Positions 1,885-38,303 of a DNA stretch of 38,303 nucleotides are shown here, in pieces. The stretch covers positions 1-38,303 of IMG/VR virus record IMGVR_UViG_3300010285_000006. The stretch is one strand, 5' to 3'. Source of the stretch: a virus. The position numbers were made by a program, and so were the translations under genes. The notes below the pieces were generated by a model that worked only from the letters and a program-made list of their open reading frames with translations, did no database searches and was not told the DNA's origin. Position 1 is the first letter of the stretch; each line of letters opens with the position of its first letter.

Positions 1885-2014
1885 CTATTAAGTTGATTAT
1901 GTAATTACAAGAATTATTATGATTATTTCAAATATTAAGTATGTTCTTTGTATTAATACATAATTCTGGGCTAAAGCTGAATAAATATATAAAAAGCCAG
2001 TATTAATGATGGCA

Positions 2015-2044
2015 ATAAAAAAGACCACAAATGGTCTTTTTTAT
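2015..2044. terminator. Bidirectional rho-independent terminator between the convergent integrase and STAS-like genes.
   Basis: aaaaaagacca-caaa-tggtctttttt: a 7-bp stem extended by an A-run and a T-run, so it can work on both strands. Confidence 0.7.
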
Positions 2045-2049
2045 TGCTT

Positions 2050-2349
2050 TTATTTAATAAGTTCAGCTTCTTTAACCCTATTTTCTATAGCTTTTTTAAT
2101 ACACATCCCTATAAATGGAGTAAGATTAGTAAATGTTGTTCTCTGCTTAAACTCATTCAATCCAACCTCAGCAACTTTTTTACCAAAAACTTCATCGGCA
2201 AATGAATTTGTTACCAAAGTCACATCTAAAAAATCAAATTCTAACTTTTCTTCACTACCATTAAATAACCTATCAAGTTCTAACTTGACTATTCTGCCGA
2301 GGTGTCTTGTACCTAATGTAGAACCAAATTCACTAAATCTAATTTTCAC
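2050..2349 (-). CDS. Small STAS-like protein (DUF4325-type).
   Basis: 99 aa with a GTG start after AAGGAGGTG. LEFDFLDVTLVTNSFADEVFGKKV matches my memory of the DUF4325 (STAS-like) core. It lies 42 nt downstream of the GHKL gene. Confidence 0.65.
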   Translation of the reverse strand: MKIRFSEFGSTLGTRHLGRIVKLELDRLFNGSEEKLEFDFLDVTLVTNSFADEVFGKKVAEVGLNEFKQRTTFTNLTPFIGMCIKKAIENRVKEAELIK

Positions 2350-2391
2350 AAAAACACCTCCTTGTTATTAAATCATACCACAAAAATTCAT

Positions 2392-3324
2392 CTACCACAA
2401 TAAAAAATCCTCATTATCAATTTCATCTAGATATCTACTAGGTAAAGAATATTTTTTATTTGTATCAAATACATCATAAATATCTATATCTATGTTTTTA
2501 TTAACTTTCAATGTTATTATTGTACCATCCCATTTATTATCTAATTCATATGCATAGCAATTACCTTCACCTATGTATAAATGCCCGTTGTTACTATAAA
2601 TATGCATTTCCCCTAAATTTCGCTCAACAAACCTTCTTGTAATATATAATCCATTTCCTTGCCCTGAACCTACTGTGACTTGCTTTTCAGTTGATTTTAT
2701 TAAGCACTCGATATTATTTAAATTAGCATATATAGCATTTTGCTTCAAAGAACCTGGAATACCTATTCCATTGTCTACTACACAGAACTCAACATGATCT
2801 TTATAGCTCTGAGCAATTAGAAATCCACCTATATGGGATTGTGAGTGTTCGAAAACATTATCTAAAAGTTCGTTAAAGGACCAGTCAATTGTATAGTATA
2901 AACTTTTAGATATACAATCATTATTAACCAGTATAGCCATTATTTCATCTACTAAATCATAATTTATTGCGGTTATATTCTTTATTGTAATAAATCTTCC
3001 AGCTTCATTATATCTATTAAAGTTTTCATAATTATCTATTCCAAGTATATTGTAAAAATCCATTCTTGATATATATTGGTCAATATCCGAGTTTGGTTTT
3101 ACAGATATATCTAAAAAATGGGAAGTATAAATTTTATTAACAAGATAACTTACTAATACAGTCAGAGCACTAGGAGAAATATATCTGCACTTACTAAAAT
3201 CTACAATAATCTCATTATAATCAGAAACTATGTACTTGTTATCAATATCATTAAATTGTTCAAATAATGATTCTAGATTAATATCTCTACATATTCTCAA
3301 AATATAACGACCCAATAAAATCAC
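2392..3324 (-). CDS. GHKL (HATPase_c) ATPase or SpoIIAB/RsbW-like serine kinase, with an N-terminal STAS-like region.
   Basis: N box ELLDNVFEHS, G1 box VVDNGIGIPG, G2 box GSGQGNGLY. N-terminal IIVDFSKCRYISPSALTVLVSYL is STAS-like. The start is uncertain (GTG 3324 or TTG 3315, both after AAAGGTGA). Confidence 0.7.
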   Translation of the reverse strand: MILLGRYILRICRDINLESLFEQFNDIDNKYIVSDYNEIIVDFSKCRYISPSALTVLVSYLVNKIYTSHFLDISVKPNSDIDQYISRMDFYNILGIDNYENFNRYNEAGRFITIKNITAINYDLVDEIMAILVNNDCISKSLYYTIDWSFNELLDNVFEHSQSHIGGFLIAQSYKDHVEFCVVDNGIGIPGSLKQNAIYANLNNIECLIKSTEKQVTVGSGQGNGLYITRRFVERNLGEMHIYSNNGHLYIGEGNCYAYELDNKWDGTIITLKVNKNIDIDIYDVFDTNKKYSLPSRYLDEIDNEDFLLW

Positions 3325-3412
3325 CTTTATGTAAATATATATTGTTATATTTACTAAATTCTACAATTTGTTCTGGAATCCTCTTATATTTTATCGACAT
3401 ATTTCTACATGT

Positions 3413-3449
3413 AAAAATAAAAAAAGAGGATAGCCTTTCAACTACCCTC
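3413..3449 (-). terminator. Rho-independent terminator ending the late (lysis) operon.
   Basis: Minus strand GAGGGTAG-TTGAAAGG-CTATCCTC followed by TTTTTTTATTTTT. The stem overlaps the endolysin stop codon. Confidence 0.65.
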
Positions 3450-4056
3450 TCATCCTATACAGCATGGTCCAGACTTCTTCCCTTGTTATAGGTTCCTTTG
3501 GCCTAGTACCATCGCTTATTCCCTTTTCTTTTACCCATTTCCAGGCATCCTTTGCCCAGTCGCTTACTTCATCTTCTTTTTTATGCTTTAATAACTTATC
3601 CATTTCCTTTTGAATTCTACCTAAAAAATCGTTCCAATAAGGCAATATCAATCTTGGGCACTCTTTACCTGACCAGCTTTTGTGAGTGCGTACTCTGTCT
3701 ATACCCCATCCGCGCTCAACAAGCATTTTTGCAATTAATTCAACAGCATTTTGCTCAGTCTTTTTGTAATCACCGCTTTCGCATATCTCTATGCCTATGC
3801 TGGTACTATTCCCCTCGGCTTTACCGCTGTGATAAGCGACCTCATCAAGTGGTATACATTCAACTGCTTGGTTTTCATCTACCACTATATGAAAGCTAGC
3901 TGACCTCGTATTCTCTGGATTGACTAGCCAGTTTCTTTCGTTCATTGCAGTGCTTTTAGGATTGCCTGTATTGTGTACTGTGATAGATGTCATTTCTGTC
4001 TTGACTCCAGGTCTCTTTCCCTTTTTAATAGGTATGTGATTTATAATGTACTCCAT
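3442..4056 (-). CDS. Endolysin, N-acetylmuramoyl-L-alanine amidase (Amidase_2/PGRP type).
   Basis: ITVHNTGNPKSTA...SFHIVVDENQ...AYHSG...IGIEICE are Zn-amidase motifs. ATG at 4056 follows GGTGGTG. The C-terminal WAKDAWKWVKEKGISDG...ITREE is like a cell-wall-binding motif. Confidence 0.85.
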   Translation of the reverse strand: MEYIINHIPIKKGKRPGVKTEMTSITVHNTGNPKSTAMNERNWLVNPENTRSASFHIVVDENQAVECIPLDEVAYHSGKAEGNSTSIGIEICESGDYKKTEQNAVELIAKMLVERGWGIDRVRTHKSWSGKECPRLILPYWNDFLGRIQKEMDKLLKHKKEDEVSDWAKDAWKWVKEKGISDGTRPKEPITREEVWTMLYRMRG

Positions 4057-4068
4057 GGTTTTCACCAC

Positions 4069-4398
4069 CTAATCAATTTTATAAGACTCATTCAATACCC
4101 CGTCATCCATATAGTCCATAAGTTTCTTGTACAGCCATCTAACAATCTGCCTTAAAGTAGCCTCTCCTATAAACAGTCGCAAAGATAGTGGTAACCTCTG
4201 CAGGACCAACCTCACGACATACTCTTCCTGCTGCTTTCCATTCTTAAGTATTTGGTCCTTCGCGTATCTCTTAGCCTGAGCTATGCCTGCATAGATGATA
4301 CGCTTAGCCTTTTCCCATTCAAATAGGCAAAATAAAACTGCAGCTATCATAAGCAGCAGTATGAATCTTAGTTCCCATACGATATTTATTATTTTCAT
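4069..4398 (-). CDS. Putative holin or lysis-associated membrane protein.
   Basis: 109 aa with an N-terminal TM helix (FILLLMIAAVLFCLF) and a charged tail. It sits between the XhlA and endolysin genes. Confidence 0.4.
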   Translation of the reverse strand: MKIINIVWELRFILLLMIAAVLFCLFEWEKAKRIIYAGIAQAKRYAKDQILKNGKQQEEYVVRLVLQRLPLSLRLFIGEATLRQIVRWLYKKLMDYMDDGVLNESYKID

Positions 4399-4421
4399 TA
4401 ATATAACCTCCTAAATTTATA

Positions 4422-4676
4422 TTATTTAAAGAGTCCCTGTTGCACTGCGTAAAAAAAGAAGCTAATAAAAGCTCCAACCAATGCTGCAATAAACCATTTC
4501 ATAGTTTTATTTAATTGCTCTAATTGGGTTATTAAATTATTCAGTCTTTCTTCTAATCTTCCATTTGCCAATTCTATTCTGTCTAGTCTTTCTGAATGAC
4601 TGTTTAATCTTCTTTCATGCAATTCAAGCTTTTCATCTATTCTTTTATGTCTTTCATCACATATTGATTTTTCCAT
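4422..4676 (-). CDS. xhlA: XhlA-family lysis protein (haemolysin XhlA-like).
   Basis: 84 aa. A coiled N-terminus (HERRLNSHSERLDRIE...LEERLNNL) is followed by a C-terminal TM helix (WFIAALVGAFISFFFY), as in PBSX XhlA. Confidence 0.75.
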   Translation of the reverse strand: MEKSICDERHKRIDEKLELHERRLNSHSERLDRIELANGRLEERLNNLITQLEQLNKTMKWFIAALVGAFISFFFYAVQQGLFK

Positions 4677-7223: not shown

Positions 7224-9095
7224 TCACACTAATCCATAACTATTTAAGGCATTTCGCAAATTATTAAGAGCATTTCTTATATTAATAACATCAGTCTTCA
7301 AATTGTTTAACATGTTTTGCTCATTAGAGCTATATGAACTTCCTGCCGATTGTGTTGTTACAATTGAAGACGGCTGAGAAACAGTAGTTCTTGAAGCAGG
7401 TGAATAACTAAAAAAGCCTAATCTACTTCCTCTATGCTGTAAATAACCGTTAAGTTCTAGCGTACCTGCCCAGTTACTTGGACCAATTGTGATGTAATTA
7501 TAACTTAAATATAATCCTGATACATACGTTGAATCATCAATTCCATCATTCAATCCAATTGAATTACCACTTGGCATAAATATACCGCCATTAATTGTTA
7601 AGCCATTTGACCAAAATTTCAAGACTCTATTATTATTTCTACTCAAATAAAAATTGTCAGAATTATTCTCGAGTATTACATTTGATGATGAGCTACCAAG
7701 CTGGATTCGATCACCTACAACTGCATCAGTATCTACATTTATTGTTACTCCAGAAAGAGTACCCCCTTGAATTTTATCTGCTGTGATTGTAATAGCTTCT
7801 AGAGCGTTTGTCGTTATTTCACCATTGAATATGAATTTGCCTTTTGTTACATCAAAATAAAGCTGTTGTATTCCTCCAGCTTTGAATTCCAATTTGTCAG
7901 AATTAAGTGTTACTTCTGCTTGTCCATCAGAGCGCTTTATTTGTAAACCATTTTTCCTGCCAATCACAACTCCGTAATATGGAACATCCTTCTGCACCAT
8001 TTTCTGAATCGTCCGTTTAAGTTGCCCTTCAAAAGGAAATTCACTTTCCTGCTCGGTATCTGAATCAGATAAGGACACCATTTTTAATCCACCACGGAAA
8101 GATGACCTATGTTCAAGAAGTATAGTAGTCAAGGTTGTGTTTCCATCCCAACGAAAGTTAGCATTCTGCCAAGGCATATTTGCATCTTCCCAGGCAAGAG
8201 TGTTCACTTCTTCGAGAGAGATCAAATCCCCGGGTTCGATAGCTGGATTTCCGCGCCAATCCAGAGATATAGGTAAATAGCTAAATCCATTTAACTGATT
8301 ATAAATATCCGTGAGTATATCTTCGGTGATATACATATTTGTGAATTCCAATGTATTAGCTTCTGTGCCTTCGCCAATTTCCAAGTATTCACCTTCTGAA
8401 TTGTATATACAACGTAGCTTTGTAATCGTCTTAATTGGGTTTGTTGGAGTTATCTTAGAATATAAATTCCTTCCTATTGTCACTGGAGTTTTAGCTTCGG
8501 CAGGCCTAATCATTTTTAATTTACCGTCTTTAGACATTTTGAAACAAGCTGCATGAGCTGACGCTATATATGAAAGCATCTCATTGATTGTTATTTCTTC
8601 ATCTTTGTATGGCACATCATAATTAGGATTGATTACTACACTGTCGTCAGCTTCCATACCAAGAATAAGTAATATTTCATCCAATACTTGTTGCATACTT
8701 ACTGGATAAGTTAAACTTGAATCAAATTTCTGATTGGCGTATATAAGTCTGTCATAAGCTGTAAATTCATAAACTCCTCTGTTTTTTATTCTTTTGTCAA
8801 TATAGAATACTCCAAGTGGTACCCATTCTGTATCGCTATCTGAACCCGTCAACTGTATATAGGGTTTTATCTCAGCATTTGAAGCAATGATATCCTCTGT
8901 TTTGATTTGAATGGTAAGCTTTGATGAGACAACAGAGCCAATTGCAAAAATAGAATTTTCAGTTAAGGCATCTTCAAGTCCATATTGTATTATTCTCTTA
9001 TCGTCATATTCAACACCGTTAATAATTGTCTTAACGCGAAATTCTCTATTGGGTGAGCTTATATATTCTTGAAAAAGTGGAGATGTTTCATACAC
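7224..9095 (-). CDS. Tail-tip or baseplate hub protein (Tal-like, siphovirus tail component).
   Basis: 623 aa with a GTG start after AAGGGGTGA. Called from its position downstream of the tape measure and Dit-like genes. Confidence 0.55.
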   Translation of the reverse strand: MYETSPLFQEYISSPNREFRVKTIINGVEYDDKRIIQYGLEDALTENSIFAIGSVVSSKLTIQIKTEDIIASNAEIKPYIQLTGSDSDTEWVPLGVFYIDKRIKNRGVYEFTAYDRLIYANQKFDSSLTYPVSMQQVLDEILLILGMEADDSVVINPNYDVPYKDEEITINEMLSYIASAHAACFKMSKDGKLKMIRPAEAKTPVTIGRNLYSKITPTNPIKTITKLRCIYNSEGEYLEIGEGTEANTLEFTNMYITEDILTDIYNQLNGFSYLPISLDWRGNPAIEPGDLISLEEVNTLAWEDANMPWQNANFRWDGNTTLTTILLEHRSSFRGGLKMVSLSDSDTEQESEFPFEGQLKRTIQKMVQKDVPYYGVVIGRKNGLQIKRSDGQAEVTLNSDKLEFKAGGIQQLYFDVTKGKFIFNGEITTNALEAITITADKIQGGTLSGVTINVDTDAVVGDRIQLGSSSSNVILENNSDNFYLSRNNNRVLKFWSNGLTINGGIFMPSGNSIGLNDGIDDSTYVSGLYLSYNYITIGPSNWAGTLELNGYLQHRGSRLGFFSYSPASRTTVSQPSSIVTTQSAGSSYSSNEQNMLNNLKTDVINIRNALNNLRNALNSYGLV

Positions 9096-20711: not shown

Positions 20712-20930
20712 TTATTTATAGGGGGGCTTTGACAGTACTTCTATCTTTGGATTGTTAGATAAAACAATAACTTCTATGTTATTAAGTCCTTGTTTCCTGA
20801 ATATATTACTCCACGTATCTTTAATTTTTTGCTTGTCTTTTTCTGATAATAGGTATTCACATCTTAATATAACGATATCATTGTCTTTAATATTGAATAC
20901 TTCTATATATTTAACGACATTGTTTTTCAA
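20712..20930 (-). CDS. Hypothetical protein.
   Basis: 72-aa ORF between the HNH and terS genes. Confidence 0.4.
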   Translation of the reverse strand: MKNNVVKYIEVFNIKDNDIVILRCEYLLSEKDKQKIKDTWSNIFRKQGLNNIEVIVLSNNPKIEVLSKPPYK

Positions 20931-21213
20931 CTAAATCGCCCTCCTTATTAAACATAACATCTTCTCTTAATGGACTATATTTTTCATTGTGCTCCTTACT
21001 ATGACAAGCAGCACATAACAGCTCTAGGTTATCCCAATTCAATGTTACATGAGGATCATTGATGTTTTCTGGAGATAAATATATCTTATGATGTACCTCA
21101 TCTCCAGGCTGTCCACATCTTTCGCATAATCCAAATTTAGATTGCTTATATGCTTCTCTACACTTCTTCCATGGCTTACTGTTATAAAACTTCTTTGCAA
21201 ATTCTCTGGCCAT
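20911..21213 (-). CDS. HNH endonuclease (terminase-associated).
   Basis: CERCGQPGDEVHHKIY...LELLCAACHSKEHN. Confidence 0.85.
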   Translation of the reverse strand: MAREFAKKFYNSKPWKKCREAYKQSKFGLCERCGQPGDEVHHKIYLSPENINDPHVTLNWDNLELLCAACHSKEHNEKYSPLREDVMFNKEGDLVEKQCR

Positions 21214-22801: not shown

Positions 22802-23050
22802 TTAATATTCTATGGCGAACCCTAATATCACATATCCTTCTTTGCAATATTCAGGATTATCCAGTATATATCCTATTTTTCTTCGTTGATTTCTCCCTGT
22901 GTATTTTTTACCATCCCATTCTTTTAACTCAAGGGAATCTCCTACTTGAAAATCTCTATCATTTTTTCTTACTTCAAAATTTTTAATATCTTTTCTTACT
23001 AAATCAAAATATTCAGGTAATATTTTTAATTCATGTAATTTTCTAGCCAT
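22802..23050 (-). CDS. DUF3850/ASCH-like (PUA-fold) protein.
   Basis: HELKILPEYFDLVRKDIKNFEVRKNDRDFQVGD. Confidence 0.6.
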   Translation of the reverse strand: MARKLHELKILPEYFDLVRKDIKNFEVRKNDRDFQVGDSLELKEWDGKKYTGRNQRRKIGYILDNPEYCKEGYVILGFAIEY

Positions 23051-32303: not shown

Positions 32304-32476
32304 GCTATCTTCTCCTCTCTCATTCTTAAGTTTTTTATTTCATTCCTGAGTTTTTCGTTCTCTTTTTCAAGCTCTTCATTAACTGCTTCCAGTGTTTCTA
32401 CTCTTGACATGACTTCTTTAAGCAACCCTAAGATATCATCTTGATCCAGATATGTTTTACTGCAGTAGATTTTCAT
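32300..32476 (-). CDS. Small coiled-coil protein.
   Basis: ATG at 32476 follows AGGGGGTATAGG. LEAVNEELEKENEKLRNEIKNL. Confidence 0.45.
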   Translation of the reverse strand: MKIYCSKTYLDQDDILGLLKEVMSRVETLEAVNEELEKENEKLRNEIKNLRMREEKIA

Positions 32477-32729
32477 TTTTCCTATACCCCCTATGCTTTG
32501 CCTTGGTTGCCATGCCACCCCTTATATGTCTCTCTGCTTTGTTTGTGTCAATGATTTGCTTAACCTGATGTGCCATATATGGATTAATTTTAGGTAGTCT
32601 TTCGGTTAAATCCTTATGAATTGTACTCTTACTTGCTCCGAATATTTTTGCTGTATCTCTGATTGTAGTCCTGCTGCTTATAATATACTTTGCTGATTCT
32701 ATGACTCTTTCTTCTATCCAATCATTCAT
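32457..32729 (-). CDS. spoIIID: SpoIIID-like transcriptional regulator (homologue of stage III sporulation protein D).
   Basis: 90 aa. ...AKIFGASKSTIHKDLTERLPKINP...VKQIIDTNKAERHIRGGMATK aligns along its full length with B. subtilis SpoIIID as I recall it (...AKEFGVSKSTVHKDLTERLPEINP...RHLRGGEATK). Confidence 0.8.
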   Translation of the reverse strand: MNDWIEERVIESAKYIISSRTTIRDTAKIFGASKSTIHKDLTERLPKINPYMAHQVKQIIDTNKAERHIRGGMATKAKHRGYRKNENLLQ

Positions 32730-34955: not shown

Positions 34956-35189
34956 CTAACCAACTTGTTTATCATGCTCAATGTCGCTTTTTGGGACATT
35001 ATAGATTAAAAAAATATCATCATCTTGATAATCTAATATTTGCTTTATCTTTATAGCGACTCTTAACGATGGATTTTTTTCGCCCAACTCTATATTTGTA
35101 TATGTTGTACGAGCTATCGGAATAAGCTTTGCTATTTTTTCTTGTGTCAATCCAGCTTTTTCTCTTATTTCTTTTAGCTTTAGTCTCAT
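34956..35189 (-). CDS. Cro-like XRE-family HTH protein.
   Basis: MRLKLKEIREKAGLTQEKIAKLIPIARTTYTNIELGEKNPS. Divergent from the repressor gene. Confidence 0.75.
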   Translation of the reverse strand: MRLKLKEIREKAGLTQEKIAKLIPIARTTYTNIELGEKNPSLRVAIKIKQILDYQDDDIFLIYNVPKSDIEHDKQVG

Positions 35190-35231
35190 TGTTTCACCTC
35201 CTAAAGTCTCTAATAGAAACATCTTAATTAT

Positions 35232-35315: not shown

Positions 35316-35356
35316 GGAAACATTTGCATGTATAATTTTATTAAGGAGTGGTGCAA

Positions 35357-36100
35357 ATGAACTTTTCTGAGAAATTACGAATGTTAAGGGATAAAAATAA
35401 TATTACTCAAAGTGATTTAGCTCAAGTGCTAAATAAAACTCGATCTGCAATTGCAGGTTATGAATCAGAAGGAAAAGAACCAGATTTTGAAGCATTAAGA
35501 AAGCTTTCTAATTATTTTGGTGTTTCAATAGATTATTTGCTAGATAACGATGAATTCATTAAGGGTAAAAAGCTTATCCCCATCCTTGGCACCATCCGTG
35601 CCGGTCTTCCTCTCCTAGCAGAGGATAATTGGGAAAGCACAATAGAGATATCAGATGAGATAAAAGCAGATTTTGCTCTCCGTGTAGTCGGTGATTCTAT
35701 GAGCTGGGTAGGTATACATGAAGGAGACCTGGCATTATTACAGCAGACTAATATAGCTCAAAACGGCCAGATTGTAGCTGCAGGCGTAATAGATGTTACT
35801 TGGGAAGCTACTCTCAAGTTTTATGTCTCAACTAACAGTCACTATGTACTAAGAGCTGCTAATCCTGACTACCAAGATATTTTATTTACTAAAAATCATA
35901 GAATTATTGGTACAGTAGTAAAAATCATAAAAGAAACACCTTCTATTTTTACATATAGAGATTTTCTTGCGGCTAAGGATATACACGATGAGGATTGGAT
36001 TGATACTATCGAAAAAGCTGCCTCTTATGGCCTAGGACCCAAAGATGTGGCTCAATACATTGAGATGTTGTCTAAAATGATTAAGCAAATAGAAAAATAG
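35357..36100 (+). CDS. CI-like repressor: XRE HTH fused to a LexA/S24 autopeptidase domain.
   Basis: ITQSDLAQVLNKTRSAIAGYESEG, then VVGDSMSWVGIHEGD...ATLKFY (Ser/Lys dyad context). Confidence 0.85.
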   Translation: MNFSEKLRMLRDKNNITQSDLAQVLNKTRSAIAGYESEGKEPDFEALRKLSNYFGVSIDYLLDNDEFIKGKKLIPILGTIRAGLPLLAEDNWESTIEISDEIKADFALRVVGDSMSWVGIHEGDLALLQQTNIAQNGQIVAAGVIDVTWEATLKFYVSTNSHYVLRAANPDYQDILFTKNHRIIGTVVKIIKETPSIFTYRDFLAAKDIHDEDWIDTIEKAASYGLGPKDVAQYIEMLSKMIKQIEK

Positions 36101-36196
36101 TTCCTTTTGGAATTATTTTTTTACCCATGCAAGGTAGAATTTTGTAAATATGTATTATCTCAGCTAATATCGAATATTAAAGAAAGGGGTTTTTCT

Positions 36197-37249
36197 ATGA
36201 AGGGTAAGAAATGGCTTATTGCCCTCTTAATTACGGTTCTTATATTCTCCAATAGCTTTGTTCTTGCTGCTGATACGAATACAAATCCAGTACCTGCTCC
36301 CTCCCCTTCCACTACTGAAACTCAACAACTAGAAGTACACTTCCTCGATGTGGGACAGGCTGATAGCACTCTAATTCAACTTCCAAACAACCAAATTATT
36401 CTCATCGATGGCGGCAATTCCTCCGATGCTGAATTTATTTGTAAATACATTCAGGACCATAAGATAAAGAAAATAGATTATCTCATAGGTACACATCCGC
36501 ATGAGGACCACATAGGAGGGCTAGAAGCAATTATAAAAACCTTTGATATAGGTAAAATCTATATGCCTAAGGTAGCACATACAACAGAAACATATAAGAA
36601 CTTGCTGCTAACCATCAAAGATAAAAAACTGAGCATCCAGGACCCAGTGGTCGGCACAAATATAATAGATGAAGCAGATATAAAATTCAAAATTCTAGCT
36701 CCTAATTCATCGCAGTATAAAGACCTAAACGATTATTCTATTGTAACCAAGCTCACATATAAAAAGAACTCTTTCCTCTTCACCGGGGATGCCGAGAAAG
36801 TGTCTGAAGATGAAATATTGGCAAAGAAATTTGTTGTAAAAGCTGATGTATTGAAAGTCGGCCACCATGGCAGCACCTCTTCCACCTCGCCAGCATTTGT
36901 TAAAGCAGTATCGCCCAAATACAGTATTATTTCAGTAGGCAAGGACAATAGTTATAATCATCCGGATAATATCATCATAAACAGATTAAAGCTATATGGT
37001 GAAGTCTTCAGGACGGATCTTGATGGCACTGTGATAATAACATCTGATGGAGAACATCTCACTATAGGAAAACAGATAAAAGCAGCTCCTACAGAGCAAA
37101 AGGAAGTATCACAGACAGTATATATTTCAAAAACCGGAACTAAGTATCACAAGGAGAATTGCTCTTATCTAAGCAATAGTAAAATACCTATTAGCTTAGA
37201 TGATGCAAAAGCTAAAGGATACACACCATGTTCTAGATGTAAACCATAA
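36197..37249 (+). CDS. Secreted MBL-fold (ComEC C-terminal-like) metallo-hydrolase with a C-terminal Cys motif. Putative nuclease.
   Basis: Signal peptide MKGKKWLIALLITVLIFSNSFVLA|AD. HFLDVGQADSTLI...GTHPHEDHIGG...KVGHHGS. C-terminal GTKYHKENCSYL...GYTPCSRCKP. Confidence 0.75.
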   Translation: MKGKKWLIALLITVLIFSNSFVLAADTNTNPVPAPSPSTTETQQLEVHFLDVGQADSTLIQLPNNQIILIDGGNSSDAEFICKYIQDHKIKKIDYLIGTHPHEDHIGGLEAIIKTFDIGKIYMPKVAHTTETYKNLLLTIKDKKLSIQDPVVGTNIIDEADIKFKILAPNSSQYKDLNDYSIVTKLTYKKNSFLFTGDAEKVSEDEILAKKFVVKADVLKVGHHGSTSSTSPAFVKAVSPKYSIISVGKDNSYNHPDNIIINRLKLYGEVFRTDLDGTVIITSDGEHLTIGKQIKAAPTEQKEVSQTVYISKTGTKYHKENCSYLSNSKIPISLDDAKAKGYTPCSRCKP

Positions 37250-37905: not shown

Positions 37906-37958
37906 CCTTCACTAACGAACATTTGTTTGTTATACTATTATTTGAGGTGATGCTAATT

Positions 37959-38303
37959 ATGCCTACTGCTGCTATCTATGCTAGAAAATCAGTGGAAACA
38001 GACAAAGGCGAATCAATAGAAAATCAAATAAATAGAGGTATTGCTCTATGCCAACTTAATGGCTGGGATTATATCATATATCAGGACTATGGCATATCCG
38101 GAAAGACTCTTGACCGCCCTGATTTTGAACGCATGATGAAAGATGCACATGCTGGGAAATTTCAATATTTAGTATGTTACAAAATAGATAGAGTCTCCAG
38201 AAGTGTTTCAGACTTCTCTTCTCTCATTGATGAGCTCATTAGTCTAGATATAGGTTTTATTTGTATAAAGGATAATTTTGATACTACCACTCCTATGGGC
38301 AGA
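37959..38303 (+). CDS. int: Large serine recombinase (integrase), N-terminal part. It continues in frame at 1..1884 through the overlap.
   Basis: ATG at 37959 lies 8 nt after GAGGTGA. The translation MPTAAIYARKSVETDKGESIENQ... carries the resolvase-type catalytic serine motif. 37959..38180 is 222 nt, in frame with the ORF at 115..1884. Confidence 0.9.
   Translation, partial: MPTAAIYARKSVETDKGESIENQINRGIALCQLNGWDYIIYQDYGISGKTLDRPDFERMMKDAHAGKFQYLVCYKIDRVSRSVSDFSSLIDELISLDIGFICIKDNFDTTTPMGR
38181..38303. repeat. Terminal direct repeat, right copy (identical to 1..123).
   Basis: Same 123-nt string as the window start. The unit genome length is therefore 38,180 bp. Confidence 0.97.

Follow-up and report, generated by a model that had tools for sequence, protein, structure and literature searches.

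A phage genome that carries a putative serine kinase beside a likely STAS-like substrate, and no recognisable output in the same locus, raises the question of what such a switch is for. The pair is encoded in IMG/VR virus record IMGVR_UViG_3300010285_000006, a stretch of 38,303 nucleotides (hereafter the window) that we read as the whole genome, circular or circularly assembled, of a temperate phage (~38.2 kb). Two co-oriented minus-strand open reading frames (ORFs), gene 1 and gene 2, fill positions 2050..3324 and have a promoter-like site of their own and a terminator-like hairpin at each end (Table 1). The best explanation overall, and one that we consider moderately probable, is a free-standing, output-less switch of the CapK/CapS-VapK/VapS type, for which a lysogen-expressed role in immunity or stress is favoured. 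An earlier interpretation made from the DNA letters alone (the sequence-only reading) had taken the cassette for an undescribed kind of system. This no longer stands, because gene 1 is homologous to VapK and gene 2 to VapS and the STAS domain of CapS, all published in 2026. What is new here is the output-less, free-standing split pair in prophage cargo slots; the kinase-STAS switch itself has been known since that year.

CapK is a helix-turn-helix (HTH)-STAS-GHKL serine kinase activated by single-stranded DNA (ssDNA), and it phosphorylates a conserved serine of CapS, a STAS-winged-HTH repressor, so that adjacent immune operons are de-repressed (Chambers et al., EMBO J 2026, PMC13373217). In the VapKSC operon, which protects E. 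coli against phage Bas42, the STAS-GHKL protein VapK is proposed to phosphorylate VapS and thereby release the PIN toxin VapC; VapS is made up of a STAS domain plus, at the C-terminus, a short tail that is required for VapC neutralisation (PMC13373217). Characterised homologues of the CapK/VapK type sense DNA damage, and VapK F54 has been proposed as an ssDNA-stacking residue (PMC13373217). In both systems a GHKL kinase and a STAS substrate thus make immune activation answer to DNA damage or ssDNA, and the locus itself shows the output, which is a repressor domain in one and a toxin in the other, whereas the cassette in the window and its relatives keep the sensor and phospho-switch only.

Relation of the two proteins to VapKSC and CapK/CapS

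The assignment of gene 1 to the GHKL kinases, already made in the sequence-only reading, is borne out by Pfam, by motifs and by modelling. HATPase_c is matched at E = 7e-9, over the curated cut-off, and the family-invariant Bergerat motifs are present (E152, N156, H160, D184xGxG and G221QGNG; residue numbers follow the 310-residue version of the protein), and, judged by its sequence, gene 1 has an intact ATP-binding site. An AlphaFold2 model (predicted local distance difference test score, pLDDT, 85.6; predicted template modelling score 0.87) places an N-domain with a beta-alpha-beta-alpha-beta-alpha order before the GHKL domain. The best Foldseek matches of this model are the catalytic and ATP-binding domains of histidine kinases, CheA P4, PDKs and SpoIIAB, the last (1til_E) with a template modelling (TM) score of 0.68 on target length. 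Gene 1 also matches phrog_3364, whose function is not annotated, at E = 3.7e-35; a single-sequence search of solved structures with gene 1 returned nothing meaningful.

Comparison with VapK is more informative. BLASTP aligns the two kinases at E = 1e-15 with 26% identity over 236 residues, taking in both the STAS and the GHKL domains, with the N-box, G1 and G2 in register and Y48 of gene 1 opposite VapK F54. VapK, at 302 residues the same size as gene 1, is likewise a STAS-GHKL protein without an HTH, and the aromatic that the two share at the proposed ssDNA-stacking position (VapK F54, gene-1 Y48) is a sequence correlate only; position 48 is aromatic (Y or F) in all eight homologues that cover this part of the N-domain. 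The STAS-like nature of the N-domain, which the sequence-only reading had also proposed, is the least secure domain call. It is supported by the alignment with the VapK STAS domain and by the topology of the model, but less firmly than the kinase: a profile search of solved structures gave the STAS region of SLC26A3 as its top match at only E ~0.1, which is weak. Alignment of the N-domain with DUF4325 by hhalign covered 18 columns at 2% probability, so that an internal duplication is not shown.

The opposite end of gene 1 (2392..2430, minus strand) has a feature of its own, an acidic stretch followed by a terminal Leu-Trp, with forms such as DEIDNEDFLLW, RNSEKNFSLW and NKRYLW. This ending is kept in five of the six closest homologues (P0002-P0005 and P0007; P0006 is truncated) and is modelled with low confidence in gene 1. 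It could be a short docking motif for a partner.

Gene 2 belongs to Pfam DUF4325 (E = 2e-9, over the curated cut-off), in line with the family named in the sequence-only reading, and its AlphaFold2 model is a single compact alpha/beta STAS-like domain (pLDDT 95.9). Foldseek places this model nearest to RsbS, the stressosome STAS proteins, the prestin STAS domain and SpoIIAA, at E-values of 0.2-2 and TM scores of ~0.5; the VapS structure 9Z7O was not among the matches returned from a fold library of entries released to 2026-04-08. A single-sequence search of solved structures with gene 2 gave nothing meaningful, whereas its family profile found 9Z7O_A, 'Escherichia VapS', as the top and only solved relative (E = 2e-5). 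VapS is itself a DUF4325 protein (E = 2.7e-17), and gene 2 aligns with it end to end (E = 9e-4); the VapK, VapS, VapC and CapS sequences used here were taken from the supplementary structure files of PMC13373217.

The predicted phospho-acceptor of gene 2 is Ser49, at the N-terminus of a helix spanning residues 48-62 in the model and invariant in 30 of 30 homologues, split and fused. In the joint alignment, TNS49FADE of gene 2 faces TDSS54FPRE of CapS without a gap, S49-F50 corresponding to CapS S54-F55 and S58-F59, which places Ser49 on the experimentally proven phospho-serine of CapS. The conserved, phosphorylatable serine that had been noticed from the sequence is thus confirmed as a conserved position aligned with a known acceptor.

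The cassette very probably belongs to the kinase-STAS lineage of CapK/CapS and VapK/VapS, as both protein comparisons suggest, and it fails the defining features of both systems. With VapKSC it shares a small DUF4325 STAS protein encoded directly downstream of the kinase and a conserved serine at the start of helix 2, although the predicted acceptor of gene 2 comes one residue after the position of VapS S48. Gene 2, 99 residues long, has no counterpart of the toxin-blocking VapS segment 94-116, the cassette contains no VapC PIN toxin gene, and it is prophage-borne. No VapC homologue was found by tblastn and phmmer in the window or in 114 related loci, and the neighbour families listed for homologous pairs do not include PIN. 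PMC5499597 describes a PIN.4 group that is probably the VapKSC toxin family, predating the naming of the system.

Likeness to CapK/CapS (PDB 9Z71-9Z73) extends to a GHKL serine kinase with an internal STAS domain, a STAS substrate and, where STAS helix 2 begins, an acceptor serine, here predicted, that is immediately followed by a conserved Phe. Gene 1 differs in having no N-terminal HTH and gene 2 in having no C-terminal winged HTH, and with it no DNA-binding domain of the kind by which CapS represses; a Pfam scan matched no HTH family in either protein. There is also no same-strand operon downstream for a repressor to control, only a terminator and then a convergent recombinase gene. Since the downstream hairpin starts 2 nt past the gene-2 stop, there is no room for a third gene. 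The remark in the sequence-only reading that no effector is present in cis therefore holds: neither toxin, HTH nor third gene lies between the terminators.

A different use of the same protein folds would be an anti-sigma partner switch. SpoIIAB and RsbW kinases form the small HATPase_c_2 family of ~140-160 residues, and a mimic of SpoIIAB/SpoIIAA or RsbW/RsbV could manipulate host sporulation or stress responses, the kinase sequestering a host sigma factor and the STAS protein releasing it. The sequence-only reading had raised the sigma-F version of this scheme, and some features fit: in both cases a GHKL-fold serine kinase is paired with a STAS protein whose acceptor serine stands at the N-terminus of helix 2, the fold matches of gene 1 include SpoIIAB and the best of gene 2 include RsbS and SpoIIAA, the likely host class is spore-forming, and the phage does encode the SpoIIID homologue that had been pointed out. 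We nevertheless consider the scheme very unlikely. Gene 1 reaches HATPase_c_2 only at E = 0.18 and 12.2 bits against a cut-off of 27.4, is twice as long as these kinases (307 residues) and has an extra, VapK-type N-terminal domain, and it resembles VapK much more closely (E = 1e-15). The listed neighbour families of homologous pairs (the 25 most frequent, plus ten ORFs scanned singly) include neither a sigma factor nor PP2C, and the cassette itself cannot house a further gene. The family is taxonomically broad and mobile-element borne, occurring in phages of non-sporulating hosts among the Proteobacteria, Bacteroidota and Thermotogota (Francisella, Bacteroides, Ralstonia and Marinitoga), which argues against a sporulation function; that function rests only on the SpoIIID homologue, for which no link to the cassette was seen.

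Split and fused relatives of the pair

One conceivable reading makes the cassette a remnant of a three-gene VapKSC operon that has lost its toxin, with no function of its own. Its relatives are numerous. With the gene-1 family profile, an exhaustive HMMER search finds 204 representative clusters at E <= 1e-30, rising to 2744 if the threshold is relaxed to E <= 1e-10, and the majority of members are 290-330 residues long. Loci were collected with a gene-2 alignment scan, which returned 84 (4 viral and 80 metagenomic), and with a pattern scan based on the gene-1 alignment, which returned only three in viral contigs and two in genomes. Across all collected loci there are 97 small DUF4325 genes, of ~94-106 residues, and the co-occurrence that the sequence-only reading had named as a check is clear and spans many lineages: a kinase lies directly upstream in 79 of ~88 evaluable cases, the denominator being 97 minus nine of the 18 other genes, which have too little upstream sequence.

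The kinases of these pairs fall into 32 clusters and two subtypes, one of ~305-330 residues with the N-domain and one of ~216 residues without it. The shorter subtype (L033, L039, L059, L062, L069, L099 and others, from metagenome contigs) starts at about profile position 108 and so has no N-terminal STAS-like domain, and still directly precedes a DUF4325 gene of 96-104 residues, often with a 7-nt overlap. At about eight further loci (L025, L031, L071, L093, L096, L101, L107 and L053) the DUF4325 gene has no intact kinase upstream although there is room for one, L053 keeping only a kinase-like fragment of 72 residues; the STAS proteins encoded there may be orphans, or their partner kinases may be very divergent or disrupted.

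Decay of a VapKSC operon is suggested by the third gene of the closest characterised system, which is missing from the cassette, and we regard it as extremely improbable. The two-gene architecture recurs in at least 32 kinase clusters with invariant catalytic motifs and Ser49, the STAS protein is uniformly short, both ORFs in the window are intact with good ribosome-binding sites, and a single-chain version of the pair is very widespread.

The pair has no constant companion. Its downstream gene varies in strand, gap and size among the 32 locus clusters, across which no recurrent neighbour gene was found, and no neighbour family is common to more than three of 90 scanned proteins (a scan in which the 25 most frequent families were listed and ten close downstream ORFs scanned singly). 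The listed families include phage and mobile-element genes (HTH repressors, tyrosine and serine integrases, Bro-N/ANT antirepressors, transposases) together with a restriction endonuclease, RmuC, a PDDEXK nuclease and some housekeeping genes, and some homologous pairs outside phages adjoin insertion sequence (IS) elements and restriction genes. The sequence-only reading had allowed for homologous pairs being housekeeping operons only, and this picture does not apply to the pairs in prophages or beside integrases and IS elements, although it does describe some others. A DNA-level search for related phages without the cassette gave short matches only, so that presence and absence are not comparable between close relatives.

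The single-chain form, of ~418 residues, joins the N-domain, the GHKL domain and DUF4325 in an order colinear with gene 1 and gene 2; it comprises more than 2072 clusters and carries the NCBI name 'STAS-like domain-containing protein'. Such fusions stand alone in variable regions. One lies, together with HEPN_Toprim_N, HNH and CAP12-PCTIR_TIR genes, in an island bounded by an integrase, and others adjoin a BglI-type restriction-modification system. The same kinase-DUF4325 unit, end to end, also forms the C-terminus of a DruE3-type Druantia helicase (P0234, 2197 residues; module at 1812-2195) and the N-terminus of the pPIWI-RE nuclease PprRE (P0280, 774 residues; module at 32-401), and both modules match positions ~12-400 of the PADLOC DrmA model PDLC02567 at E ~1e-97. 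In these DruE, DrmA and PprRE proteins the module is covalently joined to a helicase or nuclease, whereas in the window it consists of two separate polypeptides. That the module is found joined to defence proteins that target DNA speaks for its working in immunity as a sensor or regulatory switch.

The architecture of PDLC02567 explains what PADLOC, another check that the sequence-only reading had named, reports for the window. The only match is to this DrmA model, gene 1 covering positions 75-286 and gene 2 positions 314-398 of 1750, because the kinase-STAS module is built into the model. The match is real; membership of a DISARM system, considered on its account, was rejected, since only the N-terminal kinase-STAS module, which some DrmA proteins carry as a fusion, is covered and not the helicase core (DEAD/Helicase_C, DUF1998).

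In the searchable literature we found no description of the single-chain fusion or of the DruE, DrmA and PprRE fusions. The main text of PMC13373217 contains neither 'fusion' nor 'DUF4325', 'fused' there referring to epitope tags and expression vectors, and does not describe an output-less split pair in prophage cargo slots; searches of other literature on DUF4325, on STAS-like proteins and phage, and on anti-sigma antagonists and prophages returned incidental mentions only. We put forward tentatively, as a possibility rather than an expectation, that the pair and the single-chain fusion are a complete portable sensor of ssDNA or infection, with no effector in cis, whose STAS output acts in trans on a protein of the host or phage and so provides immunity encoded by the prophage, or control tied to damage, along a route that has yet to be described, and that the same module gates DruE, DrmA and the pPIWI-RE nuclease. 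Judging by the fusions, several DNA-targeting defence systems that are still poorly understood may be under the control of the switch, and such gating would be a testable handle on how DruE, DrmA and PprRE are activated.

What the pair may do in a lysogen

In the explanation that we favour, the phage would carry the cassette as an autonomously transcribed accessory unit, a 'moron', to which its own terminators and promoter-like site and its place among the lowest-GC segments of the phage correspond. The recurrence of this terminator-promoter layout in Tissierellia prophages and the position of the pair beside integrase or CI genes at other loci fit a moron as well. By analogy with the homologues, ssDNA arising from DNA damage or from the replication of an infecting phage would switch the kinase on by binding between the N-domain and the GHKL domain, where Y48 would correspond to VapK F54 and CapK W68. 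Once active, the kinase would phosphorylate Ser49 of the gene-2 protein, and phosphorylation would alter the binding state of the STAS protein. Because the STAS protein has no appended output, its partner would have to come from another gene of the phage or from the host. Superinfection exclusion or an abortive response, expressed in the lysogen, is the role that we would expect, an immunity or stress function being favoured because the module is repeatedly fused to defence proteins and sits in prophage cargo slots. A defence role is plausible. The target may be encoded in trans; otherwise the pair must have a function that has gone unrecognised. Identifying the target would show what prophages gain from a kinase-STAS switch.

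Several points weigh against this explanation. Activation by ssDNA, phosphorylation of Ser49 and phage resistance are all extrapolated from homologues that are only ~25% identical. The sizeable ~216-residue kinase subtype has no N-domain, and the proposed ssDNA groove could not operate in it. Statistically, the resemblance of gene 2 to STAS folds is weak, with no significant E-value; some homologous pairs lie among housekeeping genes with no visible mobile element; and PADLOC has no model for the stand-alone pair.

The positions of the pair in other phages bring in a second possibility, that it serves the life cycle of the phage itself by tying the moment of lysis or induction to ssDNA, DNA damage or replication state; until its phosphorylation, the STAS protein would keep hold of a phage protein of lysis or lysogeny. 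In the window the cassette directly follows the endolysin gene. In Tissierellia prophages (L001, 7626..10193, and L002-L006) the pair lies between the holin and an Amidase_5 endolysin behind three different sets of upstream phage genes, and L001 repeats the layout of the cassette, with a hairpin after the holin (7866-7891) and then a strong promoter-like site, TTGAAA-17-TATAAT (7946-7974), ahead of the kinase. Marinitoga phage MPV1 has the order CI, kinase and 'anti-sigma factor', serine integrase; in Francisella phage KIRK a 293-residue protein and a DUF4325 protein adjoin CI, and in both phages the pair is inside the CI-to-integrase lysogeny module. A tyrosine integrase directly follows the pair in L028 (IMG/VR) and L038 (metagenome). 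These placements, together with the DNA-damage sensing of the characterised homologues, would suit a lysis or induction timer. The very variety of positions between phages speaks against one, as do the occurrence of the pair outside phages and in fusions with defence proteins, the terminator-insulated, GC-anomalous character of the cassette, which resembles acquired cargo, and the presence in this phage of a LexA-like S24 repressor that already serves SOS sensing. We therefore judge a life-cycle role to be unlikely. Further phage-borne members are the pair of Bacteroides phage BF1-TP2, a kinase homologue with an adjoining 90-residue DUF4325 ORF in a Clostridioides phage, and a kinase homologue at the end of the record of a Ralstonia phage.

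A phage-borne pair that is homologous to host immune regulators and stripped of toxin and output could also be a counter-defence decoy, hampering immunity of the CapKS or VapKSC type in the host, for instance by titrating away the ssDNA that activates it or through competition with the STAS substrates or antitoxins of the host. The fully conserved active site of the kinase does not suit a decoy, and gene 2, having no C-terminal VapC-neutralising segment, is unlikely to be a surrogate antitoxin. The same architecture is also common in chromosomes and is fused to defence helicases and nucleases, and a promoter-like site of its own, enclosed between terminators, would fit expression by the resident prophage better than expression at an early stage of infection. 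On these grounds a decoy appears distinctly improbable, and a switch expressed in the lysogen remains the explanation that we prefer.

Layout of the cassette and of its phage genome

The sequence-only reading had described a terminator-bounded minus-strand two-gene unit, and such a unit is present, with its hairpins corrected to 2011..2048 and 3451..3424. The stop codon of the amidase gene (3442) directly precedes the hairpin at 3451..3424, which is both the end of the lysis operon and the upstream boundary of the cassette. The hairpin at 2011..2048 is common to the cassette and the convergent serine-recombinase gene and is the downstream boundary. Terminator-like sites in the region number 11, against 3.0 +/- 2.1 in shuffles. 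The candidate promoter (3415..3388, a consensus match only) lies ~70 nt upstream of the gene-1 start. The GC content of the cassette is 27.8%, compared with a phage mean of 35.4% (standard deviation 3.0), which puts it in the lowest 1% among windows of the same size. With the XhlA/holin-like/Amidase_2 lysis module on one side and the convergent large serine recombinase on the other, the cassette has the prophage-cargo position that had been claimed for it.

Gene 1 had been read as 310 residues long. The ORF is confirmed, and its length is probably 307 residues from TTG 3315, because the Shine-Dalgarno-like AAAGGTGA takes in GTG 3324 and because P0001, the identical protein in the database, has 307 residues. 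Gene 2 starts at GTG 2349, 7 nt past AAGGAGG and 42 nt past the gene-1 stop.

Table 1. Coordinates of the cassette, its signals and domains, and other phage features in the window
Feature	Position	Strand	Details
Terminator-like hairpin with T-run, upstream boundary	3424..3451	-	12-pair stem, 4 GC pairs, then TTTTTATTTT
Candidate sigma-70-like promoter	3388..3415	-	TTTACA-16-TAAAAT; 10/12 matches to consensus
Gene 1 ('K'), VapK-like Ser kinase	2392..3315	-	307 aa from TTG 3315
Gene 1, alternative start	GTG 3324	-	310 aa (ORF listing 3324..2392)
N-terminal STAS-like domain of gene 1 (least secure domain call)	3034..3315	-	~aa 4-97; contains Y48 in KCRYISPSA
GHKL (Bergerat-fold) kinase domain of gene 1	2500..2913	-	~aa 138-275; N-box NELLDNVFEH, G1 DNGIGIP, G2 GQGNGL
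Gene 2 ('S'), DUF4325 STAS-like protein	2050..2349	-	99 aa
Ser49 codon (TCA), predicted phospho-acceptor	2203..2205	-	invariant, aligned with the CapS phospho-serine
Bidirectional terminator-like hairpin, downstream boundary	2011..2048	both	17-pair stem, T-runs on both strands
XhlA / holin-like / Amidase_2 lysis module	4676..3442	-	
SpoIIID homologue, early region	32457..32729	-	90 aa; PF12116, E = 3.5e-38
Cro-like HTH_3 gene	34956..35222	-	divergent from CI-like gene
CI-like repressor	35348..36100	+	HTH_3 + Peptidase_S24 (LexA-like)
Metallo-beta-lactamase-fold protein	36107..37249	+	after repressor, upstream of integrase

The reading of the window as a circular or circularly assembled genome goes with a 123-bp terminal direct repeat (1-123 and 38181-38303) and with the large serine-recombinase ORF, which crosses the junction (~37950..38303, continuing to 1884, plus strand). 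The nearest large terminase is that of a Terrisporobacter phage, at 63% identity, and the likely host is Clostridia-type. No Rfam family and no tRNA were found in the window. Elsewhere in the genome, an HNH endonuclease of 100 residues (20911..21213, minus strand) lies ~300 nt from the ORF that adjoins the large-terminase gene, and a DUF3850/ASCH-like protein of 82 residues is encoded at 22802..23050 (minus strand); both look like ordinary phage genes.

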